Shown piece by piece: positions 3,916-64,000 of a DNA stretch of 64,000 bases. A model generated the notes under the pieces. It did not search any database. It saw only the letters and a list, made by a program, of their open reading frames with translations, and was not told where the DNA came from. The stretch comes from Clostridium sp. chh4-2 (GTDB lineage: Bacteria; Bacillota; Clostridia; Lachnospirales; Lachnospiraceae), in the NCBI RefSeq assembly GCF_002899675.1, contig NZ_PKUU01000025.1, positions 48,555 to 112,554 on the forward strand. The letters are read 5' to 3'. How positions within the stretch are numbered: the first letter of the stretch is position 1; each line of letters starts with the position of its first letter. The translations under genes and the position numbers were made by a program.

Positions 3916-4745
3916 CAAGTAATCCAAGAAAGCGTTTTTTCAGTATCCTGTTTCAGGTCTTATGCATAGCGGCAGGCTGCATTGTTATCTCGCCGATTCT
4001 TTATGCGGTCAGCGTTTCCTTCATGGATTCCGATCAGATTCTGAACACGGAATTGTCTCTGCTCCCGCGGAGAATCCAGTTTGAAAACTACAAGATTGCC
4101 CTGAGCACCACTCCGTTGATCCGCTATATGTGGAACTCCCTGGTGATTGCGGGAAGTTCCAGCCTGATCCGTGTGCTGACGGCCAGCATGGCGGCATTTG
4201 CATTCGCATTTCTGACTTTCAGAGGGAAAAATGTGATTTTCATGCTGTTCATGGCCACCATAATGGTTCCGGCGGACTGCCTCTTGGTTACCAATTACCA
4301 GACCGTCTCCAAGCTGGGGCTGATCAATACATACATCGGCATGATGATCGTCTTTTGCGCATCGGCCCTCAACATCCTGATGATGAGACAGAATTTTCTG
4401 TCATTTTCCAATGAACTTTATGATGCGGCCAATGTGGACGGCTGCGGAAACTTCCGCTTTTTCACCAGGATACTGCTTCCGCTTAACAAGTCAGTTCTGA
4501 CTACAGTATTCATATCCGCTTTCATCGGCACCTGGAATACATACCTCTGGCCGATGCTGGTGACGAATAAAAATGATATGAGAACCGTGCAGGTGGGAAT
4601 CACCATGTTAAACTTCCCCGACGGTACGGTATACGGCCCCATCATGGCGGCTGCAACAATTGTTTTGGTGCCCACGATCTTAGTTTTCATCATCTTTAAA
4701 AAGCAGATCGTAAGCGGCATTATGGTAGGTTCTGTTAAGGGATAA
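3912..4745 (+). CDS. ABC sugar transporter permease (MalG/UgpE-type)
   Basis: Overlapping start (ATGA) with the upstream permease; EAA-like loop ...NELYDAANVDGCGNFRFFTRILLPL. Confidence 0.8.
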   Translation: MTSNPRKRFFSILFQVLCIAAGCIVISPILYAVSVSFMDSDQILNTELSLLPRRIQFENYKIALSTTPLIRYMWNSLVIAGSSSLIRVLTASMAAFAFAFLTFRGKNVIFMLFMATIMVPADCLLVTNYQTVSKLGLINTYIGMMIVFCASALNILMMRQNFLSFSNELYDAANVDGCGNFRFFTRILLPLNKSVLTTVFISAFIGTWNTYLWPMLVTNKNDMRTVQVGITMLNFPDGTVYGPIMAAATIVLVPTILVFIIFKKQIVSGIMVGSVKG

Positions 4746-4785
4746 ACCCAGAAAATACAGAAAAAAGAAGGAGGAAATTACACTT

Positions 4786-6216
4786 ATGAAGAGAGCTATG
4801 AGTATCTTATTAGCAGCCGCTATGACAGCGGGACTGACCGCATGCGGCGGATCAGGAAGTGCGCCGGAACCGGCAAAGAGCAGTGAAGCAGCAACAACGG
4901 CAGCAGCAGGAAGCGAAGCGGCCAAAGAAACGAGCCAGTCCGAGGCGGGCGGCGCTGTGAGAGTGGAATACTGGCATACCATGACGGGAGCCAATGAAAC
5001 GGCAATTAACGCAGTAGTGCAGAAATTCAATGAAACCGTTGGCAAAGACAAAGGCATCACGGTGGAATGCATTTTCCAGGGCGACGATATCAATGAAAAG
5101 TTAAAGACCTTGTATCAGGCCAAGGATACGGCCAATTTCCCGGACTGCGCCATGATCGCCAATGCAGGAATTCCTTCTATTAAAGACTATGAGCAGGTGA
5201 TTCCCACAGAAGATATGTATGCGTCGGGAAAAGATGTGACGGTAAAGAAAGAAGACCTTCTGCCAAATGCGGCCAGAGCGGCCAGCTATCAGGAACGGAT
5301 GATCGCCATGCCGTTTAATGCATCTGCAATTCTTCTCTATTATAACAAAGATATGTTTAAAGAAGTCGGACTGGATCCGGAAAATCCGCCTGCAACCATC
5401 GCAGATATGGCGGACTGCATAGCCAAATTGATGCAGAAGGACGATAAAGGCCAGGTTACACGTTACGGTCTTAATGTGGCGGTCAGACGTTACCAGCTTG
5501 CAAACTGGATCGGAATGCAGGGCGAATACAACTTCTTTGGAGACAACGAAGGCGGCCGCACCGGAATGATGAGCAAGGTCACATTCGGCGAAGACGGAAC
5601 GTTAATGAATTACTTAAATGAATGGGATAAAGTGGTTAAAACAGGCGGATATAAAGAAGTGGAAGACAACATCAACGAAGAATTCTCCATGCAGTTATTC
5701 GGAATGGCAGTTATGTCTTCCGCACGTATCGGCAAGATCACAAGCTTAGTGGGAGATAACTTTGACTGGGGAACCGCATACCTTCCAAAGGTAAGCGCAG
5801 ATGACAAAGGCGGAGTAGCCGTAGGCGGTTCCAGCACAGTTATGTTCGACCGCGGAAATCCGGATGTTGTGGATGCGGCCTGGATCTTTACCCAGTATCT
5901 GACAAGCCCCGAGGCACAGTATGATTTCTGCAGCGCGACCGGATATATCCCGGTTAATAACGGTACATACGACCTGGATGAGATGAAGACCTTCCTGGAA
6001 GAAAATGATAAGTTTGCGGTTGCATGCGATGAACTGAGAAATTCCAATCCAAACGTACAGGAACCATTTGATATCATCAACTGGGAAATCGACGGAATCA
6101 TCCGCGACAACATGGAATTGTTCGGAAGCGGACAGCAGGATATTCAGACCACCCATGACAACATTGTCAATGACTGCAACGATAAACTTTCCAACTATGT
6201 AAGAGCAAATCAGTAA
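4786..6216 (+). CDS. ABC transporter substrate-binding lipoprotein (extracellular solute-binding protein family 1)
   Basis: Lipobox MKRAMSILLAAAMTAGLTACGG; Ser/Ala-rich linker; about 476 aa, typical of sugar SBPs. Confidence 0.8.
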   Translation: MKRAMSILLAAAMTAGLTACGGSGSAPEPAKSSEAATTAAAGSEAAKETSQSEAGGAVRVEYWHTMTGANETAINAVVQKFNETVGKDKGITVECIFQGDDINEKLKTLYQAKDTANFPDCAMIANAGIPSIKDYEQVIPTEDMYASGKDVTVKKEDLLPNAARAASYQERMIAMPFNASAILLYYNKDMFKEVGLDPENPPATIADMADCIAKLMQKDDKGQVTRYGLNVAVRRYQLANWIGMQGEYNFFGDNEGGRTGMMSKVTFGEDGTLMNYLNEWDKVVKTGGYKEVEDNINEEFSMQLFGMAVMSSARIGKITSLVGDNFDWGTAYLPKVSADDKGGVAVGGSSTVMFDRGNPDVVDAAWIFTQYLTSPEAQYDFCSATGYIPVNNGTYDLDEMKTFLEENDKFAVACDELRNSNPNVQEPFDIINWEIDGIIRDNMELFGSGQQDIQTTHDNIVNDCNDKLSNYVRANQ

Positions 6217-6234
6217 AAGAAAAGGAAATCTGTT

Positions 6235-7047
6235 ATGGTAAAACTAGTTGTCAGTGATATGGACGGCACGCTTTTAGCCCAGAACTCGGTTCTGGGCGGG
6301 CGAGCCGTCAGGATGATTCAAAAGCTGAAGGAGAAGGGCATTCTTTTTACGATGGCCACCGGCAGAAGCCAGTGCCTGAGTGAAAAATATGAGGAACTCC
6401 TGGGGCTGGAAATCCCCTATATCGCCTGTAACGGCGCTGTGATTTTACAGAGGGGAAGAATAATAAAACAGCATCAGATCGCTTTAAAGGGGCTGCGCTC
6501 TCTTATAGAAGAGGCAGACCGTCTGGATATGTCCGTGGTGTTCAGTATAGGCGGCAGCGAATTTTACTATAAAGAAACTCCATGGATTTTAGATCAGAGA
6601 AAAGAACAGGGGTATTATCAGGACCCCATGATACTTTCAGAGGAAATCTGGAATCACACGCTTTTGGAAAAGCTGATGATTATGGATAACCGCCGTACCG
6701 GACGGATTGCGCTGATGGAAGAGCTGTGCAGGAAGCTTCCGCCCGAATACGGCTTTACAAGATATACGGATATGTCGGTTGAGATCGTAAACTGCCGGGC
6801 CACCAAGGCCAGCGCCGTTCAGTTTCTGGCCGGCTATCTGGGTATCGGAATGGAAGATGTGCTGGCAATCGGCGATCATAAAAATGACTGCGAAATGCTG
6901 AAGGAAGCGGGAATAGGGGCTGCCGTGTCCAATGCGATTCCGGATGCAAAGGAGTGTGCTGATTATGTCGCTTCCGAAGATCATTTGGACGGAGTGATGG
7001 AGGCAGTGCGGGTGTTTTGCAGAATAGATACAGAGGAGGCATCATGA
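6235..7047 (+). CDS. HAD-IIB (Cof-type) sugar phosphatase
   Basis: MVKLVVSDMDGTLL motif I; Cof-like layout with C-terminal GDHKNDCEML motif. Confidence 0.8.
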   Translation: MVKLVVSDMDGTLLAQNSVLGGRAVRMIQKLKEKGILFTMATGRSQCLSEKYEELLGLEIPYIACNGAVILQRGRIIKQHQIALKGLRSLIEEADRLDMSVVFSIGGSEFYYKETPWILDQRKEQGYYQDPMILSEEIWNHTLLEKLMIMDNRRTGRIALMEELCRKLPPEYGFTRYTDMSVEIVNCRATKASAVQFLAGYLGIGMEDVLAIGDHKNDCEMLKEAGIGAAVSNAIPDAKECADYVASEDHLDGVMEAVRVFCRIDTEEAS

Positions 7048-7943
7048 GACTATCAACATCAACATGTATGTATTTTAACCGCCCGGGTGGAATAAAGGCG
7101 TCGGTCACCGATTCCATCCGCCGGATATCAGAAGCCGGTTACCGGGTTCTGGACATGAATTTCCATGATTTTTCCACCTTTCAGACACCCTTTCGGGAGG
7201 ATGGCTGGGAAAGATGGCTGGATCAGGCCATGGAGGCGAAGGAAACGTGCGGGATTGAATTTTCCCAGGGGCATTCCCATTTTTACAACTACTGCGATCC
7301 GGGCATAAAGGACAAAGAATATCTGGACGAACTGATCCGCAGGGGAATTGTGTCCGCAGGGCGTTTGAAGATCAAATGGCTGGTCATTCATGCGGGAACG
7401 GATTTCGATTCGGCCACTCCGGTGAAAAGTTCGAAACAAAAGGCATTGGAATATTTTAAACCGGTGATTGAACTGGCGGCAGAAAACGGGGTGGGCATTG
7501 CGATTGAAAACCTTTGGGATCTCAACATTTCACCCAAAAGGCGTTATACCACAACGGCGGAAGAACTGGTGGATCTGGTGGATTCCCTTCCCTATGACAA
7601 CGTTGGGATCTGCTGGGACGCGGAACATGCCAGCATCATGCAGCAGAGCCAGACAAGCGCCCTGAACCTGATTGGAAACCGTTTAAAGGCCACCCACATC
7701 TCGGATCATAACGGGAAAAATGACGACCACATCCTTCCTTTCATGGGCGCTACGGATTGGAAGGAGATTATGGAAGCCCTCAATGCGATCGGATATCAGG
7801 GCGACTTTACGTATGAAACCCACCGCTATACCCAGGCTGTCCCGGACGAAGTGATTCCGGCGGCCCTCAGGTACAGCTATGAGCTGGGACAGTATCTTTT
7901 GTCCCTGGTTCAGCCGGATTCAGATAAAATAAATGCCGTTTAG
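7044..7943 (+). CDS. Sugar phosphate isomerase/epimerase, xylose-isomerase-like TIM barrel (FrlC-like)
   Basis: gaggagg RBS with ATG 7044 overlapping the upstream stop (ATGA); ...IHAG...IENLW...WDAEHA motifs typical of AP-endonuclease 2 / TIM-barrel epimerases. Confidence 0.7.
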   Translation: MRLSTSTCMYFNRPGGIKASVTDSIRRISEAGYRVLDMNFHDFSTFQTPFREDGWERWLDQAMEAKETCGIEFSQGHSHFYNYCDPGIKDKEYLDELIRRGIVSAGRLKIKWLVIHAGTDFDSATPVKSSKQKALEYFKPVIELAAENGVGIAIENLWDLNISPKRRYTTTAEELVDLVDSLPYDNVGICWDAEHASIMQQSQTSALNLIGNRLKATHISDHNGKNDDHILPFMGATDWKEIMEALNAIGYQGDFTYETHRYTQAVPDEVIPAALRYSYELGQYLLSLVQPDSDKINAV

Positions 7944-7965
7944 ACGGCAGTGCAGGAGGAACAAT

Positions 7966-9105
7966 ATGAGTGCTACATACGACAATGCAATGAGGCGCCA
8001 GGTCATGAGCCTTCCGGAACTGATGGATGCTCAGTATGCGGATTTGGAGCCTAAAACAAGAAATATCTTATCATTTCAGGAGATCTATTCCTGCCAGAGA
8101 ATTATTCTGACAGGGTGCGGAGATTCTTATGCGGCCACCATGGCAATGAAGCCCATGTTTGAGATTCTGACCGGCATTAAAGTGGATTTAATTCCGGCCC
8201 TGGAACTCTGCCGCTATACCCCGGAGAAACTTTTAACCGGCAATGCGTTCAGCCCTCTCGTGATCGTCGTCAGCAATTCCGGCGGTGCAGCCCGTTTATC
8301 GGAAGCAGTTCAGCGCTGCAACAAATACGGAGCGTTCACCATGGCAATCACCGGAAAACCGGAATCTCCGGTGGGAATGCAGGCAAAACGCGTACTTCAG
8401 CTGGAAATCCCCAGGTTTGAGAGCGCTCCGGGAACCCGTTCCTATCTGGTATGCCTGATGGCGCTGGAATTATTAGCCATCCGCATGGGAGAAGTGAGAG
8501 GCAGATATCCGATGGATCAGGCCTCTGTTTACCGCCACGAAGTGAGGGATCAGGGTAAGGCGCTGGCTGACATGATGCCTCAGATCGACGCCTCTGTATT
8601 AGAGATCGCCGAGGCGTGGAAGGATCTTCCTGCATTTGATTATGTGGGAGCCGGATTTGATTATGCGACAGCTTGGTTTGGCCATGCAAAGATGATGGAA
8701 GCTACGGGAAGATATTCCATGCACATTAATTCGGAAGAATGGTTCCATTTAAACTGTTTCTTAAAGAATGTGGACCAGGTGGGAACCGTTGTTGTGGCAA
8801 ATACCACCAACCCGGGCCTGAGCCGGACGAAAGAGATGATAAAGGCGGCGGCCGGCATGGGAAGAAAGCTGATGATCATAACGGATGGAACGAAAGAAGA
8901 TTTCGGCGTGGACGCCTATTATGTCCGGGTGCCGAAACCCGGAACTCCATACAGCATGCCGCTGACCCAGTTTGTGCCGGTGTGCCTGCTGGCAGCCTAT
9001 CTGATGGCTATGGGAGATGAAAAACAATGCCGCGGCTGTACCGGACCATGGGAATTCTGCCAGGGTGCGGCGGGACTTAAAAACAGTGAGATCGTAATAA
9101 TTTAA
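7966..9105 (+). CDS. Double SIS-domain sugar-phosphate isomerase/deglycase (AgaS/FrlB/GlmS-C family)
   Basis: IILTGCGDSYAATM and VVSNSGG SIS motifs, with a second SIS domain downstream; caggagg RBS before ATG 7966. Confidence 0.7.
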   Translation: MSATYDNAMRRQVMSLPELMDAQYADLEPKTRNILSFQEIYSCQRIILTGCGDSYAATMAMKPMFEILTGIKVDLIPALELCRYTPEKLLTGNAFSPLVIVVSNSGGAARLSEAVQRCNKYGAFTMAITGKPESPVGMQAKRVLQLEIPRFESAPGTRSYLVCLMALELLAIRMGEVRGRYPMDQASVYRHEVRDQGKALADMMPQIDASVLEIAEAWKDLPAFDYVGAGFDYATAWFGHAKMMEATGRYSMHINSEEWFHLNCFLKNVDQVGTVVVANTTNPGLSRTKEMIKAAAGMGRKLMIITDGTKEDFGVDAYYVRVPKPGTPYSMPLTQFVPVCLLAAYLMAMGDEKQCRGCTGPWEFCQGAAGLKNSEIVII

Positions 9106-9117
9106 CAGGAGGCCGCT

Positions 9118-9522
9118 ATGCTGAAAAAATATGATTTACAGACAGAATATAATGATGTGATTAATATAACGGACCAGGTGAAGGAGGCCGTATCCGAAAG
9201 CGGAGTGAAATCAGGGCTTTGCCTGGTGTTCAATCCCCATACCACCGCGTCCATGACCGTGACTTCCTTCTGGGACCCCAAAGGTTTTGAGGATCTTCAG
9301 GATGAGATCTGCCGCCTGATCCCTACTAAAGTGGATTTTAAACATCAGCACGACACGCCGCAGGACGCGGCCGGACACGTGAAATCCTCCCTGATGGGAG
9401 TGGAGATGTGCTTTATTGTAGAAGACGGAAAGCTTCTTTTAGGCGGTTCCCAGGGAATCTTTTTCCTGGAATTCGACGGCCCCAGAAAACGGAAATTCTA
9501 CGTAAAGGTAATCGAAGGATAA
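9118..9522 (+). CDS. YjbQ/UPF0047 family protein (secondary thiamine-phosphate synthase-like)
   Basis: 134 aa; ...LCLVFNPHTTASMTV...FFLEFDGPRKR pattern typical of YjbQ. Confidence 0.65.
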   Translation: MLKKYDLQTEYNDVINITDQVKEAVSESGVKSGLCLVFNPHTTASMTVTSFWDPKGFEDLQDEICRLIPTKVDFKHQHDTPQDAAGHVKSSLMGVEMCFIVEDGKLLLGGSQGIFFLEFDGPRKRKFYVKVIEG

Positions 9523-9533
9523 AATAAAGCCAT

Positions 9534-9590
9534 AAAAATGCCCTGGCAGACGGCATATTCCATTCATGCTGCCTGCCAGGGTATTTTTAT
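9534..9590. terminator. Bidirectional terminator between yjbQ-like (+) and the GntR regulator (-)
   Basis: Stem ccctggcag / ctgccaggg flanked by an A-run and a T-run. Confidence 0.7.
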
Positions 9591-10372
9591 AAAATTTTAT
9601 TGTCAATCTGATAAGAACCGCCGACATTCTTTAAAGTGAGTTTGAAGCGCACCGCGTTGCCGATCCAAAATGTGCTGGAAAGCTCCAACGGAGTCTGGTC
9701 TTCCAAAACGGACAGGCCGTTAACCAGCATCAGCGGAGAATCCGGAGAGATATCCAGAAGATGCGTTTCCTCCAGAGTAGGGCGGGTCACTTCAATCGTA
9801 TCATCCACCTCTGCGGCGATCAGGTTATAATCGTGAGCCAGGGTGGCAGAAAGCTTATTATTGGGAATATCGATGGATTCGATTCCCGGCACAAAATGGG
9901 ATGGAATCCAGGACTTTCCTAAAGCAACCGGCTTTCCATTGGAATAATAGAGCCTGGAAAAATAAAAAACAGGAGAGCCCAAAGGGATCTGAAGCGGGCC
10001 GCAGATTTCTGCCGAAGCCTCTTTAATCACATACTGCTCAACTTTCTCGGCCGTAATATTATAGGACTGGAGGCCGCCGGAGTTAAAACGTTCGCTGGAC
10101 ACCAGATTATAGCTCAGGTTATGGACAAATGGGGAACGGATTTCATTGACAACCGCCGGCTTTCCCTGCTGGCGCTTGATGAATCCATCCCGTTCCAGCT
10201 CTTTTAAAGCCTGCCGGATGGTGATCCTGCTGACCTTATATTCGTCGTTCAGTTTTGCTTCAGAAGGAATTGGCCGTCCCACAGCCCATTCATGGATGGA
10301 GATGCGTTTTTTCAGATCGTTATATACCTGATAATACGCAGGGATGGGAGAGTTCTTATCAATGGAATGCAT
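9587..10372 (-). CDS. GntR/HutC-family transcriptional regulator with UTRA effector domain (FrlR-like)
   Basis: N-terminal wHTH ...VSRITIRQALKELERDGFIKRQQGKPAVV; 261 aa. Confidence 0.85.
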   Translation of the reverse strand: MHSIDKNSPIPAYYQVYNDLKKRISIHEWAVGRPIPSEAKLNDEYKVSRITIRQALKELERDGFIKRQQGKPAVVNEIRSPFVHNLSYNLVSSERFNSGGLQSYNITAEKVEQYVIKEASAEICGPLQIPLGSPVFYFSRLYYSNGKPVALGKSWIPSHFVPGIESIDIPNNKLSATLAHDYNLIAAEVDDTIEVTRPTLEETHLLDISPDSPLMLVNGLSVLEDQTPLELSSTFWIGNAVRFKLTLKNVGGSYQIDNKIL

Positions 10373-10459: not shown

Positions 10460-11479
10460 ATGAGTATTACATTAGAAAACAGGGTATTAGGGTCTCTTTA
10501 CGGCATGGCCACCGGAGACGCATTGGGGGTTCCGTCATCCACTTATCCGCAGAAGCAGGTGGAGGACACATGGGGCTGGATCGACACCTTTTATCCGCCC
10601 GCTCCGGGACACATTTTCCACGACGGCTTAAAGTCCGGAGAATATACCGATGACACGGAACAGGCGCTGGCGCTGATGCATTCATTCATCCGCAACAAAA
10701 AAGTGGTTCCCCACGATGTAGTAAATGAAATCATCAAATGGGCGGACCGTGTGAAAGGAAAATATGCCAGCCCGTTGGGCCCCAGCACCGAACGCGCGTT
10801 AAAGGCCATCCGGGAAGGCGCCGATATCCATACTTCAGGTATAAACGGCAATACAAACGGTTCCGCTATGAGAATCAGCCCGGTGGGCATCATTCACGGA
10901 ATCAGGAAGTCCGGCTGTGAAGACCTGGTAAAAGACGTTTACATGACCTGTATGCCGACCCATAACACCGATGTCTGCGTATCCTCTGCCGCCGCAATCG
11001 CAAGAGGTGTTGCAGTATGCCTGATGGGAGAAACGGATCTGGACAAGATCGTGCTGGAAACTCAGAAAGCCGCCGACTTAGGCGCCGCTTACGGCAATAA
11101 AATCTGTGCGCCGTCCATTTCCAAAAGAATTGCCCATGCCTGTGAGATCGTAAAGAAAGCGGAAACTCCAAAACAGGCCCTGAAAGATCTTTATGATATC
11201 TACGCGGGGATGGATTTGGCCGCCGATTCCATACCGGTTGCCGTAGCTCTTTTTGTTCTCGGCAAAGGCAATGTAAAACTGGTCAATGAATACTGCGTGA
11301 ATTTCGGCGGAGACTGCGATACCAACGCAGCTATGGCCGGAGCTATGGCCGGAGCCTATTCGGGAATCGAAACTGTGCCTGCGGATTGGGTAGAGACCAT
11401 TAATAAAGTGAATGATATCGATTTGTCGGTCTATGTACCGCAGCTGATCGAACTGGCAAAGGACTGGACGGTAGCATAA
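10460..11479 (+). CDS. ADP-ribosylglycohydrolase (ARH/DraG) family protein
   Basis: LGSLYGMATGDALGVP N-terminal signature and C-terminal ...GGDCDTNAAMAGAMAGA Mg-binding region. Confidence 0.8.
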   Translation: MSITLENRVLGSLYGMATGDALGVPSSTYPQKQVEDTWGWIDTFYPPAPGHIFHDGLKSGEYTDDTEQALALMHSFIRNKKVVPHDVVNEIIKWADRVKGKYASPLGPSTERALKAIREGADIHTSGINGNTNGSAMRISPVGIIHGIRKSGCEDLVKDVYMTCMPTHNTDVCVSSAAAIARGVAVCLMGETDLDKIVLETQKAADLGAAYGNKICAPSISKRIAHACEIVKKAETPKQALKDLYDIYAGMDLAADSIPVAVALFVLGKGNVKLVNEYCVNFGGDCDTNAAMAGAMAGAYSGIETVPADWVETINKVNDIDLSVYVPQLIELAKDWTVA

Positions 11480-11582
11480 GGAAAAGAGCGGAGTCCGGCG
11501 TCAGAAGATTAAAATGGAATATATTAGCAATACTTATATATAATAGTTAAAACAAAATATGACTAATTAATACTTTCCTTCT

Positions 11583-11611
11583 TGAGAAACTTTACCATTG
11601 TGCTATAATCA
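11583..11611 (+). promoter_or_regulatory. Sigma-70-type promoter with extended -10 (TTGAGA-N17-TGcTATAAT)
   Basis: cttcTTGAGAaactttaccattgTGcTATAATcaag; it lies upstream of a terminator hairpin and the MtmB-like operon. Confidence 0.45.
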
Positions 11612-11640
11612 AGTTAATTGATAAAGTTTGGCAAGTAAAT

Positions 11641-11703
11641 AAAAGGACGGGAAGCCTGATTGTAATTCTAAAATTTCAATCAGGCCTCCCGTCCTTTTTT
11701 TAT
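11641..11703. terminator. Strong rho-independent hairpin (possible attenuator of the MtmB-like operon and/or terminator of the ARH gene)
   Basis: ggacgggaagcctgattg / caatcaggcctcccgtcc 18-bp stem (1 mismatch) followed by TTTTTTT; A-run upstream. Confidence 0.75.
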
Positions 11704-11756
11704 TTCATAAAAAATGCGATATAAAAACAATTCACGAAGGAAGAAGGAGGAAGCAC

Positions 11757-13133
11757 ATGACAGCAAAAGAGTATCTGTCGATTTGGCAAAGAGGGGAAGA
11801 AGGAGAGAAGGTATCAAAAGAGGACTGGGATCTGGATTACATTGTGGATGGAGTTCGGGAACTGGTGGAAGATTATGATTTTACCTGGGACAAACAGGTG
11901 ATCATCCCGACTGAGGACAAGCTGTTTGATGACATGTTTGAAGCCGCAAAGAAATTCCTGGCTCACAATGGTGTGTTCAACATGTCCACCGGACGCATTA
12001 TGTCTCTGTCTGAAGAGGAGATAGAAGAGGGGATCAGTAATATGAAGACCTCTCTTGTGATGGGAGAGGGAAAAGACGCGGTGACCTTAATCGCAAGGGA
12101 AGTGGAGGACAGAAGAGAACCCTTAGTATGGGCCGGAAATCCCGGATGTCCCACGCCGGAACGCCTCTATTATCCCATCATTTTAAGCTCTGCCAAAGAG
12201 CCTGTGATCGACCTTTTAACCTGCGGTTCTCTGGTGGATGTGGACGGCTATCAGGTAAAAAGCGGGGCGCCCACAGAACTGATTGCGGTCAGAAGAGAGC
12301 TGGAATATCTTCATAAAGCCCTTGCGGAAGCAGGAAAACCCGGCATGGGGCTTTTGGCGGCAGAAAGCGCGGTGACGGAGATGGGAGATCTGGCGGCTTC
12401 CTGTGAAAAACGCCTCCGTCCTTGTGATTCCCACCTGACTGCCATGTTCAATGAACTGATCGTGGATAACGGAAACCTTGTGAGAGCAGCCAATTCTCTG
12501 GATTACGGAATGAGAAATGCTTCTCTGGCCTGTACCATGGTGGGCGGCCTTGCCGGAGATGCCCCGGGGGCCACTGTGGTTATGATCGCTTCCATGCTGG
12601 CGGCCAATATCGTGTATATGGCGGATTACCATCTCTGCCATCCGATCCACATCCGGGATATCGCCACAACGGCAAGAGGCTGCCTCTGGCTTCAGGCGGT
12701 GCTCTGCCAGACATTTGCCAAAAAAGCTCCTGCGATCATCGTATGCGATCTGTGGCCTGCAAGCGGCGCTTATACAAAGGAACTCTTATACGAAGTGGCA
12801 GCCAATTCCATCGTGGTATCCGTATGCGGCGGACATCTGGAAGGGGTTGGATCAGCCAACGGGAACCTGCCTAATGGAACCGGTCTGGAAGTGCGCCTGA
12901 TGGGAGAAGTGGGAAAAGCCGTCGCAAGACAGGGCATGACCCGGGAAAGGGCCAATGAGATCGTATTAAAACTACTGGAAAAATACGAACATGTATTTTC
13001 CATGGAAGGCGGAAATCCGGGCCGCAGCTTTGAAGAATCTTATAACATGGAAACAATCGAGCCGGTGGAAGGATGGCTGAAGATGTATGAGGAAGTGAAA
13101 CAGGAACTGGCAGAGATGGGGATTGAGTTTTAG
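11757..13133 (+). CDS. Monomethylamine methyltransferase MtmB-family homolog lacking pyrrolysine (non-Pyl MtmB-like methyltransferase)
   Basis: 458 aa, the same length as MtmB. Shared blocks: EDWDL..IPTEDK, AGKPGMGLLAAE (MtmB AGRPGMGV-Pyl-GPE), HLCHPIHIRD (WHLDGPVHIRW), EVRLMGEV (EARMMGEV), C-terminal ...EEVKQELAEMGIEF (...KKLEDLGLVF). The ORF is uninterrupted, with Leu at the Pyl position. aaggagg RBS. Confidence 0.75.
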   Translation: MTAKEYLSIWQRGEEGEKVSKEDWDLDYIVDGVRELVEDYDFTWDKQVIIPTEDKLFDDMFEAAKKFLAHNGVFNMSTGRIMSLSEEEIEEGISNMKTSLVMGEGKDAVTLIAREVEDRREPLVWAGNPGCPTPERLYYPIILSSAKEPVIDLLTCGSLVDVDGYQVKSGAPTELIAVRRELEYLHKALAEAGKPGMGLLAAESAVTEMGDLAASCEKRLRPCDSHLTAMFNELIVDNGNLVRAANSLDYGMRNASLACTMVGGLAGDAPGATVVMIASMLAANIVYMADYHLCHPIHIRDIATTARGCLWLQAVLCQTFAKKAPAIIVCDLWPASGAYTKELLYEVAANSIVVSVCGGHLEGVGSANGNLPNGTGLEVRLMGEVGKAVARQGMTRERANEIVLKLLEKYEHVFSMEGGNPGRSFEESYNMETIEPVEGWLKMYEEVKQELAEMGIEF

Positions 13134-13159
13134 GCTTTGTGCACAAAGGAGAAAATGAG

Positions 13160-14713
13160 ATGAAAACGAATAATATCAGCCTGTTTAAAAGAGAAGACGT
13201 GGGCGGAGTTGTCTATGCATTTGTGGGAAATCTGGTTAACTATATTATCATTATCTATGCTTTAAAAGGGATCGGCTGGACGGATGATATCATCTATGGA
13301 AGGGTGGTTCCGGGCCTGTCCATCGGGCTCATGGCCAGCGGAATCGTCTATGCGGTTATGGGATGGAATCTGGCTAAGAAAACAGGAAAAAATGACGTGA
13401 CCGCTCTTCCGTCAGGCGTGTCCACACCGGCCATGTTTGTCTATCTGTACGGAGTCATTTATCCCCTGTCTTATGCGGGACTTGCGCCGGAAGAGTGCTG
13501 GACCGCTGCTGTGGCCGCATGTTTCCTGGGCGGAGCAATCGAACTTCTGGGCGGTTTTGTTGGACCTTATATCAGAAAATACGTTCCAAGAGCGGCCATG
13601 CTGGGAAACGTGGCAGGAATCGGACTGGTTTGGATGGCTACGGTAGGCTTATTCGAAGTTTACCATGATCCAATTCTGGGCATGCCGGTACTGCTGATCG
13701 CATTAATCGGTTTAATCGGCGGTTATGTGTTTAAGAAAAAGATTCCTATGCTTTTGGTATCCGTGGTATTTGGCGTGGTCTATGCAATCTGTCTCGGACG
13801 GGTGAACGTGGATACGTCCACCATCGGCTTTGTTGTGCCGTTTTTCTCAGGCGCTCATATTATAGCGGGATTTAAGATGATCGTGCCGTATCTGGGCATC
13901 ATCATCCCCATCGAAGTGTATAATTTCATCGAAACAATGGACAATGTGGAGTCTTCCATAGCTGCAGGAGATGAATACAATGTGGGCCATGCCCAGATCG
14001 CAGACGGCTGCTGTACCATGCTTTCCGCTTTATTCGGCGGCATTATTCCAAACACCGTATGGCTTGGCCATCCCGGACTGAAAAAGAGCGGTTCAGGAAT
14101 CGGTTTTTCCTGGGTGACCGGACTGCTTTTCGGAGCTTCCGCTTTGTTTGGCGTTTATGGGTTCTTCGATTCCCTGATGCCTGCGGTAATCGCTTCCATA
14201 ACCTTTTTATGGTGCGCAATTCTCATGGTGGTTCAGTCCTTTACCGATGTTCCGAGAAGACATGGGGCCGCGGTGGCAATTGCACTGATCCCTCATATTG
14301 CGGATGTGCTCTATACTTATGTGAGAGATGCGCTGGGAAGCTTCGGCATATTCATTGAAGAAGGACTGACTATGAACTCTTCCGATCAATTTTCTCAGGC
14401 AATGCTGGATTACGGCGTGACCTGGCACGGTGTTTATGCGATGAGAAGCGGAGCGATCCTAACCAGCATTATGTGGGGCGCTGCCGTGGTATTTATCATC
14501 GACCGCAGACTTGATAAAGCGGCATATGCGCTGGTAATTGCCTCAGTGCTTTCCTTTTTCGGTTTCATGCATTCCACCGGGCTGGGCTGCGGCCTGAATA
14601 CCATGAATTTCCCGTATGCGGTGGGCTATTTAATCAGTGCGGTCATTTGCTTCATCATTCATAAAACACAGAAGAAACTGATGGATGTGCCGCGCAGATA
14701 CGATTACGTATAA
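13160..14713 (+). CDS. Polytopic permease, NCS2/AzgA-like (xanthine/uracil/vitamin C permease superfamily), putative substrate importer for the MtmB-like enzyme
   Basis: About 518 aa with 12 or more predicted TM segments; N-terminal LFKREDVGG...AF.GNLVNY resembles the AzgA/PbuG start; aaaggag RBS before ATG 13160 (the track start at 13139 is GTG). Confidence 0.45.
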   Translation: MKTNNISLFKREDVGGVVYAFVGNLVNYIIIIYALKGIGWTDDIIYGRVVPGLSIGLMASGIVYAVMGWNLAKKTGKNDVTALPSGVSTPAMFVYLYGVIYPLSYAGLAPEECWTAAVAACFLGGAIELLGGFVGPYIRKYVPRAAMLGNVAGIGLVWMATVGLFEVYHDPILGMPVLLIALIGLIGGYVFKKKIPMLLVSVVFGVVYAICLGRVNVDTSTIGFVVPFFSGAHIIAGFKMIVPYLGIIIPIEVYNFIETMDNVESSIAAGDEYNVGHAQIADGCCTMLSALFGGIIPNTVWLGHPGLKKSGSGIGFSWVTGLLFGASALFGVYGFFDSLMPAVIASITFLWCAILMVVQSFTDVPRRHGAAVAIALIPHIADVLYTYVRDALGSFGIFIEEGLTMNSSDQFSQAMLDYGVTWHGVYAMRSGAILTSIMWGAAVVFIIDRRLDKAAYALVIASVLSFFGFMHSTGLGCGLNTMNFPYAVGYLISAVICFIIHKTQKKLMDVPRRYDYV

Positions 14714-14727
14714 GGAGGAAATGGAAC

Positions 14728-14997
14728 ATGGATGCAAAATGTGTGAGAGTATTAAGACCCTATGACGATTCAGATAATCATAAAAGAGTGGTATATATTG
14801 ACGAAGATGCCAGATATTCTTTGATGAAGCAGTGGGGAGACACCGTCTTTATCAGAGGCAGAAGGGACATTAAAGACGTTGAGATACAGCCCTTAAAAGC
14901 GATGGACCAGGAAGGATTTATCGCAAGGATGGGGAAGGATCTTTTGGATGAGGTGTACGTGGAATACGGGGAAGAGGTTATGCTGAGCAGGGAATAA
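14728..14997 (+). CDS. Small (89 aa) hypothetical protein, possibly a CDC48-N/VAT-N-like double-psi beta-barrel, translationally coupled to the permease
   Basis: aaggagga RBS 8 nt upstream; VRVLRPYDD...RVVYIDEDARYSL..GDTVFIRG pattern reminiscent of VAT-N. Confidence 0.35.
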   Translation: MDAKCVRVLRPYDDSDNHKRVVYIDEDARYSLMKQWGDTVFIRGRRDIKDVEIQPLKAMDQEGFIARMGKDLLDEVYVEYGEEVMLSRE

Positions 14998-15036
14998 AAA
15001 GACTTTGTGACGGCGAAAATACGCCGGAAAAGAGGT

Positions 15037-15086
15037 GGGATCGGGAATGGGCCGGAGATGCGGCTCATTCCCGATCCTTTTCGTTT
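15037..15086 (+). terminator. Rho-independent terminator closing the MtmB-like operon
   Basis: gggatcgggaatg / cattcccgatcc stem followed by ttttcgtttcc. Confidence 0.65.
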
Positions 15087-15628: not shown

Positions 15629-16483
15629 ATGAATACAGAATATTTGCAGTGGCATCCCGCTTTTTATGCTGCGGCTCAGATCGAGTTTTCAGAAGAACGG
15701 GAAAAGCTTTATTTTGAAGACGAACACCAGCTCAGCAAAAAGCCGTTATTGATCGACACTCTGATTATAAAAGTCAGAAATGGCGGCCGGATACGGAAAA
15801 ATATTGGAAAGATTTTCAGAGAGCATAATATTATAGAATATAAGAGCCCTGAAGATTATCTCAGCATTAACGATTATTATAAGGTGCTGGGGTATGCGTG
15901 TCTATATCAGGCCGATACGGAACGGGTCTGCCAGATATCGCCGGAAGAGATCACAATCACCTTTGTATGTACCCATTTCCCCAAAAAACTGGTGTCGTAT
16001 CTGATCAATCAGAAAAAATTAACGGTTACCTGTGAGGAGGCGGGAATTTACTACATAGAGGGAGCTGTTTTTCCGATGCAGATGATTGTGGTCAGCCGGC
16101 TGTCACCGGAACATAATTTCTGGCTGAGCCGTTTGAGAAAAGATTTAACAATAACCGATGATATCGAAAAATTGGCAAGGGAATACAGGACGAAAAGAAA
16201 CAGTCCGCTGTATTCGGCGGTTATGGATGTACTGATGAGAGCAAACCATGATGCGGTAGAGGAGGCGAAAGATATGTGCGATGCGATCAGAGAGTTGTTT
16301 GCAGATGAATTGAAGGCTGGAATGGAGAAAGGAATCGAGCAGGGAATTGAATGCGGCATAGAGCGTGGAATTGCCAGGGCCAAAACGGTTTTTCGCATGC
16401 ATGCCCAAGGCAGCACGCCGGAGGAGATTGCCAAAGCATGTGGAATTACAACAGATGAAGTTCAAAAAATCTTGACAGATTAG
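15629..16483 (+). CDS. Rpn/YhgA-family PD-(D/E)XK recombination-promoting nuclease / putative transposase (TIGR01784-like)
   Basis: 284 aa; C-terminal Gly-Ile-Glu repeats (EKGIEQGIECGIERGIARA) characteristic of this family. Confidence 0.6.
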   Translation: MNTEYLQWHPAFYAAAQIEFSEEREKLYFEDEHQLSKKPLLIDTLIIKVRNGGRIRKNIGKIFREHNIIEYKSPEDYLSINDYYKVLGYACLYQADTERVCQISPEEITITFVCTHFPKKLVSYLINQKKLTVTCEEAGIYYIEGAVFPMQMIVVSRLSPEHNFWLSRLRKDLTITDDIEKLAREYRTKRNSPLYSAVMDVLMRANHDAVEEAKDMCDAIRELFADELKAGMEKGIEQGIECGIERGIARAKTVFRMHAQGSTPEEIAKACGITTDEVQKILTD

Positions 16484-18703: not shown

Positions 18704-19399
18704 ATGACAGGAAAATTATATGGTATCGGCGTAGGCCCGGGAGATCCGGAGCTTTTGACCTTAAAAGCGGTGCGCCTGATAAAAGAATGCGATAAAATAG
18801 TAGTTCCGGGAGAGGATTACAAGACCAGCGTGGCCTATAAGATCGCCTTGGAAGCGGTGCCGGAGCTGGCCGAAAAAGAGGTGTGCGGAATTCCCATGCC
18901 GATGACAAAGGATAAAGCCGTTTTAGAAGAAAATTACAGACAGGCAGCAGCTGAAATTACCGGATGGATGGACCGGGGAAATGACGTGGGCATTTTGAAT
19001 CTGGGAGATGTGACCGTTTACTCCACCTGCCTTTACATTCATAAGCTGGTAAAAGAGGCGGGCTATTCCACCGAACTGGTGAATGGGATTCCATCCTTCT
19101 GCGCCGTAGCGGCCAGGCTGGATATGGGGCTTGTAGAGCGTTCTCAGCAGCTCCACGTGCTTCCGGCATCCTATCAGATTGAAGAAGGGTTAAAGCTGCC
19201 GGGAACAAAAGTGCTCATGAAGTCAGGCAGACAGATCGGCAATGTGAAAAAACAGATAAAAGAGCTGGGCATGGAAGCCGTGATGATCGAAAACTGCGGG
19301 ATGGAGGATGAAAAGATTTATCGGACCACAGATGAAATCGATGAAAATGCGGGGTATTATTCCCTGATGATTGTGAAAGAGCAGGAAACGGTTCAGTAG
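18704..19399 (+). CDS. cbiL: Cobalt-precorrin-2 C20-methyltransferase
   Basis: LYGIGVGPGDPELLTLKA signature; 231 aa. Confidence 0.85.
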   Translation: MTGKLYGIGVGPGDPELLTLKAVRLIKECDKIVVPGEDYKTSVAYKIALEAVPELAEKEVCGIPMPMTKDKAVLEENYRQAAAEITGWMDRGNDVGILNLGDVTVYSTCLYIHKLVKEAGYSTELVNGIPSFCAVAARLDMGLVERSQQLHVLPASYQIEEGLKLPGTKVLMKSGRQIGNVKKQIKELGMEAVMIENCGMEDEKIYRTTDEIDENAGYYSLMIVKEQETVQ

Positions 19400-19478
19400 G
19401 CGGGTGCATTTACTGAACAGACTGTAAGAAATCATAAAAGAACAAACGCGCCGCATTAGCGGCAGATTGAGAGGAAAG

Positions 19479-20207
19479 ATGAAGCAGATCTATGTTGTGG
19501 GCATAGGCCCTGGCAGCTATGAACAGATGACAATAAAAGCGGCGGAAATTTTAAAATCCTGCGATCTGATTGTGGGATACACCGTATATGTGGATTTGAT
19601 TAAAGAGTATTTTCCGGATAAAGAGATGATGACAACGCCCATGAAAAAAGAAGTGGAGCGCTGCCGCCTGGCGTTTGAAGAAGCGGACAAGGGAAAAGAC
19701 GTGGCAATGATATGCAGCGGCGACGCAGGCGTGTATGGGATGGCAGGGCTGATGTATGAGATCGGAACTGAGTATCCGGACTGCCGGATTACGGTAGTGC
19801 CAGGCGTCACTGCCGCAGTTGCGGGCGGAGCAGTTCTCGGAGCGCCGCTGATCCACGATTTTGCCCTGATCAGTTTAAGCGATCTTCTGACCCCGTGGGA
19901 GAAGATCGAAAAGCGTTTGGAATGCGCTGCCATGGCGGATTTTGTGGTCTGCCTTTACAACCCTTCCAGCAAGAAACGCCATGATTATCTGCAGAAAGCC
20001 TGCGATATCATGATGCGCTATGCATCGGAAGATACGGTCTGCGGAATCGCAGCCAATATTGGACGGGAAGGGGAAAACGGAAGGACGATGTCATTAAAAG
20101 AGTTGAGGGATACGAAGGTGGATATGTTCACCACCGTATTTATCGGTAATTCACAGACAAAAGTAGTGGACGGCCACATGGTAACTCCAAGAGGGTATTT
20201 GATTTAA
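19479..20207 (+). CDS. cbiH: Cobalt-precorrin-3B C17-methyltransferase
   Basis: IYVVGIGPGSYEQMTIKA; 243 aa. Confidence 0.85.
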   Translation: MKQIYVVGIGPGSYEQMTIKAAEILKSCDLIVGYTVYVDLIKEYFPDKEMMTTPMKKEVERCRLAFEEADKGKDVAMICSGDAGVYGMAGLMYEIGTEYPDCRITVVPGVTAAVAGGAVLGAPLIHDFALISLSDLLTPWEKIEKRLECAAMADFVVCLYNPSSKKRHDYLQKACDIMMRYASEDTVCGIAANIGREGENGRTMSLKELRDTKVDMFTTVFIGNSQTKVVDGHMVTPRGYLI

Positions 20208-20306
20208 TGTTACGGTTCACAGTTTCTGCAAACTTCCAAAACCGGACCGGACGGCAGAGACCGCCGGGGCTGTGAATAACGATTTAATAGAAATGAGGAC
20301 GGCTGA

Positions 20307-21077
20307 ATGACTATTATCAAATCAATGGTAATTGCCTGCGCGATGTATTCGAAGATACCCATGCCCAAAGTGGACTGGAATGAAAAAAATATGAAATACG
20401 CGCTTTGCTTTTTCCCTCTGGTGGGTCTTCTGGAAGGCGCGGCATTTTTCGCATTTTACTGCCTGTTGGGATATATCAACGCAGGAGAGCTTTTTAAGGC
20501 ATCTGTTTTGTGCGCAGTTCCGGTTCTGATCACAGGGGGAATCCACATGGACGGTTTTCTGGACACCATGGACGCGTTAAGCTCCTACCAGACCAGGGAA
20601 CGAAAATTGGAGATATTAAAAGATTCCCATACGGGGGCATTTGCAATTATCGGCTGCGCCGTTTATATGGTGCTGTATCTGGGCGGTGTGAGCGGCTTAA
20701 AGGATGCACAAAGCTGCCTGCTGATTTCGCTGGGATTTGTGATATCCAGGTCTCTGAGCGGCCTTTCTCTGGTCCTTTTTCAGGGGGCGAGAAAGAACGG
20801 CTTGGCTTATACATTTTCAAGTTCTGCCCACAAGGCGGTTACCAGGGGAGTGCTGGCGGCTGTTTTCATAATCTTCACCTGTCTGGCTTTAAGAATGAAC
20901 ATGATTGCTGGCAGCATTATGACAGCAGGGGCGGTTTTCGTGTTTTTCTATTACCGTTTCATGTCATATAAGGAATTTGGCGGAATCACAGGAGATTTGG
21001 CGGGATTTTTCCTTCAGATCTGCGAATTGGTGATGCTCTATTCCGTAGTCATTGCGGAAGGATTGAGACAACTATGA
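20307..21077 (+). CDS. cobS: Adenosylcobinamide-GDP ribazoletransferase (cobalamin synthase)
   Basis: Membrane protein with CobS-like N-terminus (IPMPKVDWNEKNMKYALCFFPLVG). Confidence 0.8.
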   Translation: MTIIKSMVIACAMYSKIPMPKVDWNEKNMKYALCFFPLVGLLEGAAFFAFYCLLGYINAGELFKASVLCAVPVLITGGIHMDGFLDTMDALSSYQTRERKLEILKDSHTGAFAIIGCAVYMVLYLGGVSGLKDAQSCLLISLGFVISRSLSGLSLVLFQGARKNGLAYTFSSSAHKAVTRGVLAAVFIIFTCLALRMNMIAGSIMTAGAVFVFFYYRFMSYKEFGGITGDLAGFFLQICELVMLYSVVIAEGLRQL

Positions 21078-22024
21078 ATTTACATATAGCGGCGCTGGGG
21101 ATCGGATTTATCCTGGATTTGATGTTCGGCGATCCCAGATGGATGATCCATCCTGTCTGCCTGATGGGCAAAACGATATCATGGGCAGAGAAAACAGTGA
21201 GAAGAATCGCAAAAGATGAAAAAAAGAAACTGCTGGCAGGAAGCGTATTTTTGTGTGCAGGAAATGTGATTTTCTGGACGGGACTGTCCTGGCTGCTGTG
21301 CAGTCTTTTATATAAAGCCGGTCCGGGCGTGGGCCTGGCCGGAGAGAGCTTTTTGTGCTATCAGCTTTTAGCCGTAAAAGGCTTGAAAAGCGAAAGCATG
21401 AAGGTGTATCAAGCTTTGAGATACGGGACAATTGAAGAGGCCCGCCATGCGGTTTCCATGATAGTGGGCCGCGATACCCAGGACTTAGATAATGCCGGGG
21501 TGACAAAGGCCGCAGTGGAAACGGTGGCGGAGAATCTGTCGGACGGGGTGATTGCACCTCTGCTTTTCATGGCAGTCGGCGGAGCTCCGTTGGGCTATTT
21601 TTATAAAGCGGTGAACACCATGGATTCCATGGTGGGGTATAAAGACGAAAAGTACCTTTATATCGGAAGAATTCCGGCGAAGCTGGACGATGTTTTAAAT
21701 TATATTCCGGCCCGGATTTCCGCACTTTTGATGATCCTTACGGCCCCGCTTGCCGGGCTGAACGGAAAAGACGCATTTAGGATTTGGAGAAGGGACGGCA
21801 GAAATCATGCCAGCCCCAATTCGGCTCAGACAGAGGCAGCGGCAGCAGGAGCGCTGGGGGTGCAGCTGGCAGGAGATGCGTATTATTTTGGCAAGCTTTA
21901 TAAAAAGCTGACCATCGGAGATAAAAAGAGAGAAATTGAAATCGAGGATATCAAACGGATAAACAGGCTGCTCTATATAACGTCGGCGGCCGCGATGCTG
22001 ATTGTTCTGGCAGTCGGCATTTAA
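21074..22024 (+). CDS. cbiB: Adenosylcobinamide-phosphate synthase
   Basis: CobD/CbiB membrane protein; overlapping start with cobS. Confidence 0.8.
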   Translation: MNLHIAALGIGFILDLMFGDPRWMIHPVCLMGKTISWAEKTVRRIAKDEKKKLLAGSVFLCAGNVIFWTGLSWLLCSLLYKAGPGVGLAGESFLCYQLLAVKGLKSESMKVYQALRYGTIEEARHAVSMIVGRDTQDLDNAGVTKAAVETVAENLSDGVIAPLLFMAVGGAPLGYFYKAVNTMDSMVGYKDEKYLYIGRIPAKLDDVLNYIPARISALLMILTAPLAGLNGKDAFRIWRRDGRNHASPNSAQTEAAAAGALGVQLAGDAYYFGKLYKKLTIGDKKREIEIEDIKRINRLLYITSAAAMLIVLAVGI

Positions 22025-22053
22025 CATCTGTACGGCTATAAAAGGAGGATAAA

Positions 22054-22842: not shown

Positions 22843-22844
22843 TC

Positions 22845-23597: not shown

Positions 23598-23600
23598 GGG

Positions 23601-25988: not shown

Positions 25989-26009
25989 CTCCGAATGAGA
26001 GGATAAAAT

Positions 26010-27506: not shown

Positions 27507-27510
27507 ACGC

Positions 27511-28143: not shown

Positions 28144-28163
28144 GGCGTTGCCGCTGCCGTAAA

Positions 28164-29423: not shown

Positions 29424-29536
29424 AAAAATTCCCCCCTTAATTAAAGCTATTATATCATAAAACCGTATAAAATCCAAAAATAATACAATAAATCTAAAAA
29501 AATCCCAATGCCGCAGGTGATGGAAGGGAGACAAGC

Positions 29537-32968: not shown

Positions 32969-32969
32969 A

Positions 32970-63937: not shown

Positions 63938-64000
<63 letters not shown>

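Follow-up and report, generated by a model that had tools for sequence, protein, structure and literature searches.

The monomethylamine methyltransferase MtmB of Methanosarcina contains a UAG-encoded pyrrolysine (Pyl), which activates the methylamine and is located, as Pyl202, on a beta-strand inside the enzyme's TIM barrel (PMC9842639). MtmB has no significant sequence homology to MttB (PMC9842639), the family of the non-Pyl enzymes MtgB (glycine betaine), MtpB (proline betaine) and MtcB (carnitine). The non-Pyl homologs of MtmB form hundreds of sequence clusters, of which one has a known function, that of the archaeal MtqB of Methanococcoides methylutens Q3c (PMC13044021). This enzyme, described in March 2026, demethylates tetramethylammonium and choline, and its authors reported this as the first function of any non-Pyl MtmB, the others still being without an assigned function (PMC13044021). 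The latter would include bacterial clades such as the one described here. The MtqB clade has a conserved Met/Cys/aromatic site, and MttB and MtqB enzymes that lack Pyl take substrates resembling the Pyl-methylamine adduct (PMC13044021). Here we analyze an operon of Clostridium sp. chh4-2 which starts with a gene for such an MtmB homolog and is located in a stretch of 64,000 nucleotides (contig NZ_PKUU01000025.1, positions 48,555 to 112,554 of the forward strand), in the following called the window.

The operon encodes on the plus strand the MtmB-like protein, a permease and a stand-alone double-psi beta-barrel (DPBB) protein. The first of these is very probably a corrinoid-dependent substrate:corrinoid methyltransferase (MT1) for an imported methylated compound. 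Judged from its genomic context, it has about an even chance of being a methyltransferase for methyladenine (or another methylpurine) that yields adenine, and we are evenly divided on whether the operon represents the uptake and substrate-activation half of a corrinoid-dependent demethylation of N-methylated adenine. The original prediction for this DNA had regarded the function of non-Pyl MtmB-family proteins as not established, which no longer holds for archaeal MtqB and still holds for the remaining members (PMC13044021).

The MtmB-like protein has leucine at the pyrrolysine site

The MtmB-like gene (11757-13133, plus strand) encodes a putative MT1 of 458 aa (WP_103230019.1). The protein matched the MtmB family PF05369 over the full length (E=1.8e-94, 317.6 bits at a cutoff of 25, profile positions 5-450 of 450), and the crystal sequences of Methanosarcina barkeri MtmB (1L2Q/1NTH and 1TV2) matched with residues 9-458 versus 12-458 (E=5e-65). 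The identity to M. barkeri MtmB was 31%, and 37 positions that were invariant over 102 clade members were identical in the M. barkeri protein. In the alignment Leu200 pairs with Pyl202, the "X" of the crystal sequence. The gene contains no internal in-frame TAG; the only one is its stop codon (13131-13133), read-through of which would add just nine codons before a TGA. The profile match and the alignment to the structure sequences thus confirmed both the homology to MtmB and the leucine at the Pyl position that had been predicted, together with the lack of an in-frame amber codon.

Leu200 and the surrounding GMGLLAAES block were invariant across 121 close homologs, and leucine occupied the Pyl site in all 102 loci gathered for this study (see below). 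The positions of Glu229 and Glu259 of M. barkeri MtmB, which in the 2002 structure paper are reportedly partners of the pyrroline ring, were both invariantly leucine in the gathered clade members. We considered two fragments starting near position 200 (P0279 and P0293) as possible Pyl-containing close relatives and rejected them, because they were truncated sequences and not UAG-split genes; the fragment matches had leucine wherever they covered the Pyl site. The large open reading frames (ORFs) scanned in the window included no pyl genes. With respect to MtmB in the strict sense, the UAG-encoded Pyl was absent, as were an adjacent MtmC and a methylamine permease. The 458-aa protein is thus a member of the MtmB family that lacks the defining feature of a true monomethylamine methyltransferase, and it appears to have an MtmB-family scaffold in which the Pyl-based site is replaced by a hydrophobic one. 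It shares with the Methanosarcina enzyme the family, the length and the TIM-barrel scaffold and probably also the chemistry, i.e., the transfer of an N-methyl group to a corrinoid protein in the Co(I) state. It differs by leucine in place of Pyl202, Glu229 and Glu259, by the lack of an adjacent mtmC-type gene, by its host, which is a bacterial gut Clostridium/Lachnospiraceae, and by a context of purines and not of methylamines.

The window protein was matched by 796 clusters of a 50%-identity library, with one full-length neighbor at 54% identity and the next at 39% and lower; the bulk of the matches were at 28-33%, as was Pyl-MtmB. For the analysis of gene neighborhoods, two sets of loci were gathered. 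The first consisted of 22 loci of reference genomes (68-96% identity, supplemented by exact-protein look-ups) from Lachnospiraceae, Blautia, Eubacterium, Lactonifactor, Brotonthovivens and Emergencia, and the second of 80 metagenome loci (53-78% identity). Some loci are near-duplicates within a species, e.g., L026/L040 and L020/L034. A neighbor-joining tree separated the window clade (60 loci, motif GMGLLAAE) from a sister clade (42 loci, motif MLAAQ or LLAGQ), whose members have the same leucine at the Pyl site (52-64% identity). Neighboring genes were called by tblastn against reference proteins, and representatives were checked with Pfam and NCBIfam.

Purine and adenine genes adjoin the MtmB-like gene

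A purine-related gene was present within 6 kb of the MtmB-like gene in 45 of the 60 window-clade loci (75%), and the purine and adenine neighbors span genera and phyla. A gene for the permease was located directly 3' of the MtmB-like gene in 24 of the 60 loci, with a PF00860 purine permease instead in one locus, and in 21 loci genes for a Bmp/PnrA-type binding protein, an ATP-binding cassette (ABC) ATPase and two BPD_transp_2 permeases were directly adjoining. Adenine deaminase genes were neighbors in 17 of the 60 loci, and their representatives scored above the TIGR01178 equivalog cutoff. Adenine phosphoribosyltransferase (Apt) genes, also above equivalog cutoffs, were found in three loci (L009, L020 and L024) across both scans. 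In the sister clade, one or two PNP_UDP_1 nucleoside phosphorylase genes adjoin the MtmB-like gene in six loci of the LLAGQ subclade. Methylated purines, which the original prediction had suggested as assay substrates, agree with this context.

Since the three loci with Apt have no deaminase gene, adenine and not methylamine is suggested as the product. In E. coli, neither N6-methyladenine nor N6,N6-dimethyladenine is accepted by the adenine deaminase AdeC (PMC13296781), and a demethylation step before the deaminase is therefore biochemically sensible. The routes known in bacteria for N6-methylated adenine are hydrolytic deaminations (PMC8643624; PMC13296781), and the recycling of methylated adenine is "not established" even in E. 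coli (PMC13296781). The hydrolytic deaminases Bsu06560 of B. subtilis and Add of E. coli bring adenine compounds with an N6-methyl group back into purine metabolism (PMC8643624; PMC13296781), as the proposed system would do. However, they release methylamine and form hypoxanthine or inosine, whereas the proposed system would keep the adenine and transfer the methyl group onto a corrinoid. In literature searches we found no paper that ties MtmB homologs to purines or adenine deaminase, or that describes a corrinoid-dependent demethylation of N6-methyladenine.

The deaminase genes also allow a different reading, in which a deaminase-family enzyme splits N6-methyladenine into hypoxanthine and methylamine and the MtmB-like protein, still a methylamine methyltransferase, moves the methyl group to a corrinoid protein. 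This would be in line with the MtmB ancestry and with the 17 loci having adjacent genes of the adenine deaminase family; moreover, annotated adenine deaminases can deaminate N6-methylated substrates (PMC8643624), and Pyl-less MtqB has a small methylamine demethylation activity (PMC13044021). On the other hand, the methylamine-activating Pyl (PMC9842639) is invariantly replaced by leucine, like the two glutamates, the adjacent deaminases score as canonical adenine deaminase equivalogs, of which the E. coli representative rejects N6-methyladenine (PMC13296781), and the Apt loci fit adenine as the product. We therefore regard this route as quite unlikely.

The function of MtqB, which is the only characterized non-Pyl MtmB (PMC13044021), suggests as another alternative a demethylase for quaternary amines such as choline, tetramethylammonium or betaine, in which case the purine neighbors would be coincidental. 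SNF-family transporter genes adjoin the MtmB-like gene in L008 and L028, and one is located 9 kb away in the window. Such a coincidence is difficult to reconcile with purine or adenine genes in 75% of the clade loci across genera and phyla. In addition, no quaternary-amine transporter, either of the BCCT or of the betaine-type ABC type, was seen next to the window clade, where adenine deaminase, Apt and purine importers are found instead. MtqB is encoded beside its corrinoid protein MtqC and serves methanogenesis, whereas an adjacent corrinoid protein gene is lacking in the window clade, and the window clade stands apart in the 50%-identity library, as described above. The distinction of the two non-Pyl MtmB homologs is based on context and not on an alignment. 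A quaternary-amine demethylase appears a little less probable still than the methylamine route.

Members of the permease family were also found without an MtmB gene, downstream of tandem adenine deaminase genes in Clostridium paraputrificum (L030, 6439-11566) and Desulfonispora thiosulfatigenes (L031, 6438-11566). At both loci, two adenine deaminase paralogs are followed by the permease. The first paralog reached 390 bits, which is under the TIGR01178 cutoff (472.5), and could be a specialized deaminase, e.g., for N6-methyladenine.

Other genes adjoining the MtmB-like gene included an aldo/keto reductase-4Fe-4S ferredoxin fusion (L005, 8806-9987; L006; L024, 11514-12638) and plain aldo/keto reductases (L003 and L028).

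Probable corrinoid-dependent methyl transfer

The scan of the large ORFs of the 64 kb revealed neither a B12-binding corrinoid protein nor an MT2 methyltransferase of the URO-D or pterin type, as had been predicted for the surroundings of the operon. One locus of the window clade (L018, 73% identity) contains the MtmB-like gene together with genes for a URO-D-family MT2, a PocR-AraC regulator (minus strand), a corrinoid protein and a RACo-like activase. The corrinoid protein of 217 aa has the domains B12-binding_2 and B12-binding and the motif GDLHDIG (DxHxxG). This set of a substrate-specific MT1, a corrinoid protein, an MT2 and an ATP-dependent RamA/RACo reductive activase is also that of the non-Pyl MttB systems, which differ in the fold family of the MT1 and in having quaternary-amine substrates and not the presumed methylated nucleobase.

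Two of the L018 proteins have full-length homologs in the window. The PocR-sensor/AraC regulator (28164-29534, minus strand) is 61% identical to the L018 regulator and 59% identical to a regulator encoded divergently from an Ade-ABC-MtmB-like operon in the Blautia locus L015; judged from these similarities, it is a candidate regulator of the system. The RACo-like corrinoid reductive activase (29537-31717, plus strand) has Fer2, Raco_middle and RACo_C_ter/ASKHA domains and shows 48% identity to the activase of L018. The pair (28164-31717) is inserted between cbiC and cbiD, about 15 kb from the operon, in a cob/cbi cluster (18704-38000) that starts 3.6 kb from the operon and comprises a complete anaerobic set (cbiK, cbiC, cbiD, cbiJ, cobS, cobD, cobU, hemBCD and others). 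The B12 biosynthesis cluster and the activase were thus found at the distance given in the original prediction. Over the whole 64 kb, including the cob/cbi cluster, Rfam at its gathering thresholds gave no cobalamin riboswitch. The synteny in L018 supports the distant RACo gene as a partner of the operon, and its product is a candidate activase for the cognate corrinoid protein. Of the parts of a three-component methyltransferase system, the window encodes the MT1 and the activase, whereas a corrinoid protein and an MT2 are not encoded with the MT1.

In the sister clade, a corrinoid protein gene was located 22-38 nt 5' of the MtmB-like gene in 10 of the 42 loci, twice together with RACo, and these loci often contained an ECF-type transporter and a GntR/UTRA regulator. 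Together with the full set in L018, the PocR/RACo homology and the B12 synthesis genes of the organism, this supports the proposal of an uncharacterized B12-dependent demethylation system.

Loss of methyl transfer would be an explanation for the absence of a corrinoid protein from 59 of the 60 clade loci and from the window. The protein would then be a TIM barrel that functions without a corrinoid in the metabolism of adenine or purines, e.g., as a hydrolase, an isomerase or a protein binding the base; this would be compatible with the replacement of Pyl and of the two acidic positions and with neighbors forming a self-contained transport-plus-salvage set. Against this stand L018, where an in-clade protein is encoded within a full cluster of MT1, MT2, corrinoid protein and activase, the tight coupling to corrinoid proteins of the sister clade with the same leucine, and the PocR and RACo homologs in the window. 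Furthermore, characterized MT1 enzymes, e.g., MttB-family members of Eubacterium limosum, are known to work with corrinoid proteins encoded elsewhere. We consider a corrinoid-independent function improbable, if less so than the two alternatives above.

The vicinity of the cob/cbi cluster might also point to a role in cobamide synthesis, i.e., in providing or altering adenine or 2-methyladenine as the adenine-type lower ligand of pseudocobalamin-like cofactors. Cobamides naturally occur with adenine as a lower ligand, and such a role would account for the position of the operon 3.6 kb from this cluster, which harbors PocR and RACo. However, the recurring or Pfam-annotated neighbors at the other loci examined included no identified cob genes, and the recurrent partners are catabolic and salvage enzymes (Ade and Apt) and importers. 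Among the alternatives, we find this one the hardest to believe.

At its N-terminus, the RACo-like activase carries an additional domain of about 220 aa, of which residues 50-180 match 1J6R of T. maritima methionine synthase (E=9e-7), which we take to be the AdoMet-binding reactivation domain. The protein therefore appears, from its domain composition, to fuse two kinds of corrinoid reactivation module, and a fusion of a MetH-activation-domain-like part with RACo was also present in L018. At three sister-clade loci (L098, L099 and L101), a further MtmB paralog, divergent and 461 aa long, is encoded about 3.5 kb upstream of the MtmB-like gene along with a corrinoid protein of its own. The order in these loci is corrinoid protein, MtmB paralog, corrinoid protein and MtmB-like protein, and more corrinoid protein copies are encoded nearby.

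Transcription signals and a conserved leader hairpin

The coordinates and lengths obtained in the ORF analysis agree with the predicted three-gene operon. The intergenic gaps are 26 nt between the MtmB-like gene and the permease gene and 14 nt between the permease gene and the DPBB gene, with a Shine-Dalgarno sequence in each. A sigma-70-like promoter was predicted at 11582-11609 (plus strand; TTGAGA, a spacer of 16 nt with TG, and TATAAT, 11 of 12 matches). This block, whose role as a promoter is suggested by its sequence, is located about 25 nt 5' of a leader hairpin and is kept in the close relatives L002 and L021. The operon is closed by a strong intrinsic terminator (15037-15078, or up to 15086, plus strand) with a stem of 18 pairs, 11 of them G-C, a loop of 6 and a T-run.

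The leader hairpin (11638-11705, plus strand) is followed by a U-run and resembles a terminator, with -37.8 kcal/mol for the window copy. Its 5' half, GGNCGGAGAACC(G/T)ATTGAAATCT, is kept in sequence across genera, and compensatory changes were found in the stem, where GGACGGGAAGCC pairs with GGCCTCCCGTCC, GGACGAAAAACC with GGTTTTTCGTCC and GGCCGGAGAA with TTCTCCGGCC. Two-sided changes occurred at 6 of the 16 pairs, and 86% of the cells pair versus 43-59% when the partner is slid. Covariance models (R1 and R2) gave strong matches (>43 bits) in 15 loci, four of which had not been used for model building. All strong matches were located 11-300 nt 5' of the ATG of the MtmB-like gene and scored higher on the gene strand, and there was no strong match elsewhere in 1.3 Mb. 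In several loci the element lies between the Bmp gene and the MtmB-like gene. It is thus a conserved element specific to the MtmB-like gene and not a generic terminator. The operon had been predicted to be bounded by terminators on both sides, which was borne out downstream; upstream, the presumed terminator is not a mere boundary.

In L003, L020 and L034 the U-run of the leader lies immediately next to the ribosome-binding site, at 11-12 nt from the start codon, and the mRNA must therefore be transcribed through the hairpin. The arrangement points to regulated read-through, i.e., to a possible attenuation by a protein or ligand, and for the MtmB-like gene the hairpin is a candidate attenuator or cis-regulatory RNA. 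Known riboswitches, including those for purine and cobalamin, were tried as an explanation and rejected, since there was no Rfam match at gathering thresholds in the window and 16 related loci; the leader gave only chance-level matches and no family in this search. Action of the DPBB protein on the hairpin was likewise rejected, because the two do not co-occur: the hairpin is found in loci lacking the DPBB gene, and the DPBB gene is found without the hairpin in L035 and L037-L039.

The permease and the DPBB protein

The permease gene (13160-14713, plus strand) encodes 517 aa from the ATG chosen by the gene caller; an alternative GTG at 13139 would give 524 aa. The permease matched neither PF00860 nor any other Pfam or NCBIfam family, there was no sequence match in the PDB, and hhalign gave a probability of 1.5% against a true PF00860 protein. 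A true NCS2 member was therefore ruled out at the profile level. The AlphaFold2 model (pLDDT 78) contained the pair of short intramembrane strands that belong to the 7+7 UraA fold, and Foldseek matched it with a probability of 1.0 to BicA, SLC26 (SLC26Dg), SVCT1, UraA and UapA, with TM values of just 0.4-0.57. Since SulP and SLC4 proteins share this fold, it is not diagnostic of NCS2. At NCBI and JGI, members of the family, for which Pfam has no model, are named xanthine/uracil/vitamin C or AGZA permease. The description as "NCS2-like" was thus supported by the fold and the database names and not by the sequence profile. With the AzgA/NCS2 permeases (PurP, PbuG, UraA and UapA) the window protein shares the 7+7 inverted-repeat fold with short central strands, the source names and the linkage to adenine deaminase, and it differs by its lack of a match at the profile level. 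The linkage to adenine deaminase is a better clue to its function than the NCS2 label, and the permease probably imports adenine or an adenine derivative. The predicted analogy to mtmB-mtmP of methanogens was correct in that a methyltransferase gene lies beside a transporter gene, and this shared arrangement is its whole basis.

The DPBB gene (14728-14997, plus strand) encodes a protein of 89 aa that was found to have the DPBB fold of the VAT-N/CDC48_N type, as predicted. In the window clade the gene was present in 14 loci, always 3' of the permease gene in the contexts examined, which corresponds to 14 of the 24 permease loci. The trio of MtmB-like, permease and DPBB genes was intact in Deltaproteobacteria bacterium Smac51 (L032) and on another Gram-negative contig (L033), and therefore behaves as a transferable cassette. 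Immediately 3' of the operon, the window contains a gene (15629-16483, plus strand) for an Rpn-family (PD-(D/E)XK) recombination-promoting nuclease or transposase-like protein, which fits the trio as a mobile cassette, given its presence also in Deltaproteobacteria.

Other genes in the window

Exact NCBI matches, from a contig of 112.5 kb, were obtained for five window proteins (PNV59902-59905 and PNV59918). The gene directly 5' of the operon (10460-11479, plus strand) encodes a protein of the ADP-ribosylglycohydrolase (ARH) family. It adjoins the MtmB-like gene only in the window, L002 and L021, which are one species group. A role as a glycosidase releasing a methylated base is speculative; the nearest solved relative, MJ1187, is itself uncharacterized and gave no functional lead.

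A GntR/UTRA regulator is encoded divergently from the ARH gene (9587-10372, minus strand). It may control the ARH and MtmB-like genes or else an upstream sugar cluster, i.e., it may belong to the operon at 2989-9522 (plus strand) instead of the MtmB-like operon. The 2989-9522 operon encodes a sugar-type ABC transporter (two BPD_transp_1 proteins and SBP_bac_1), a HAD phosphatase, an AP_endonuc_2/xylose-isomerase-like TIM barrel, a double-SIS protein and YjbQ, and looks like one for the use of an amino sugar or fructosamine-type compound. Non-orthologous GntR/UTRA genes recur near MtmB-like relatives, including members of the sister clade. As a conserved dedicated regulator the protein was rejected, because the window copy and the copy next to the L033 trio are merely 28% identical (helix-turn-helix region), which leaves their orthology unsupported.

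Two WYL-domain proteins (minus strand) are encoded divergently from an RtcB RNA ligase gene at 58183-61785, which is likely a module for RNA repair regulated by the WYL proteins. At 63937-64000, the window edge cuts off a 16S rRNA gene (RF00177), of which it includes the 5' end.

Proposed methyladenine demethylation

In the pathway that we propose, the base would be imported by the UraA-fold permease, or by the Bmp/PnrA-type ABC importer in other genomes, and bound by the MtmB-like TIM barrel, where hydrophobic residues in the pocket would replace pyrrolysine and its acidic neighbors. The Co(I) of a corrinoid protein, whose gene would lie elsewhere in the genome, would accept the methyl group. 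A URO-D-type MT2 would then hand it to tetrahydrofolate or a thiol, and oxidized corrinoid protein would be re-reduced by the RACo-like activase (29537-31717). The adenine formed would be deaminated by adenine deaminase or salvaged by Apt. Expression would be gated by the leader hairpin and possibly also by the PocR-AraC regulator. The family, the leucine at the Pyl site, the operon, the neighborhood counts, the B12 set of L018 and the leader hairpin were observed directly; we infer which compound is the substrate, in which direction the methyl group moves, that a corrinoid protein encoded elsewhere is used, and how the genes are regulated. The substrate may be N6-, N1- or N3-methyladenine, or a nucleoside instead of the base. 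N6-Methyladenine, with a methylamino group on a ring carbon beside a nitrogen, would resemble the Pyl-methylamine adduct, and N1- or N3-methyladenine would resemble the cationic N-methyl donors of other non-Pyl enzymes.

Several points weigh against this proposal. The substrate is deduced from neighboring genes alone, and about one quarter of the clade loci, many of them short contigs, have no purine gene, while L004-L006, L008 and L013 have unrelated neighbors. Adenine deaminase and Apt are both absent from the window. The best NCBIfam match of the Bmp-type protein was a putative B6 binder, below the cutoff, and ligands other than purines are also bound by proteins of this type. Corrinoid use by the window clade rests on L018 and the sister clade, no corrinoid protein or MT2 having been found in the window or in 59 of the 60 clade loci. 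To our knowledge, all characterized non-Pyl methylamine-type MT1 enzymes take quaternary amines. Finally, N6-methyladenine is a poor methyl donor unless it is protonated.

The window clade now has a concrete, directly assayable candidate class of substrates, and the leader hairpin is a separate, testable candidate regulatory RNA. We put forward, tentatively and with chances slightly below even, that a non-Pyl branch of MtmB serves gut and sediment anaerobes in the B12-dependent demethylation of methylated adenine derived from DNA or RNA, with a new class of leader RNA controlling the gene. If so, adenine would return to salvage or catabolism and the methyl group would enter one-carbon metabolism. 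Methyladenine would be the first nucleobase substrate of any corrinoid methyltransferase, its demethylation the first function of a bacterial non-Pyl MtmB, and the enzyme a second case in which the substrate stands in for the Pyl-methylamine adduct. Corrinoid methyltransferase chemistry would be widened from small amines, ethers and betaines to nucleobases. This would explain the recycling of methylated adenine in anaerobes and would tie the turnover of nucleic acid modifications to acetogenic and one-carbon metabolism and to the B12 demand in the gut.

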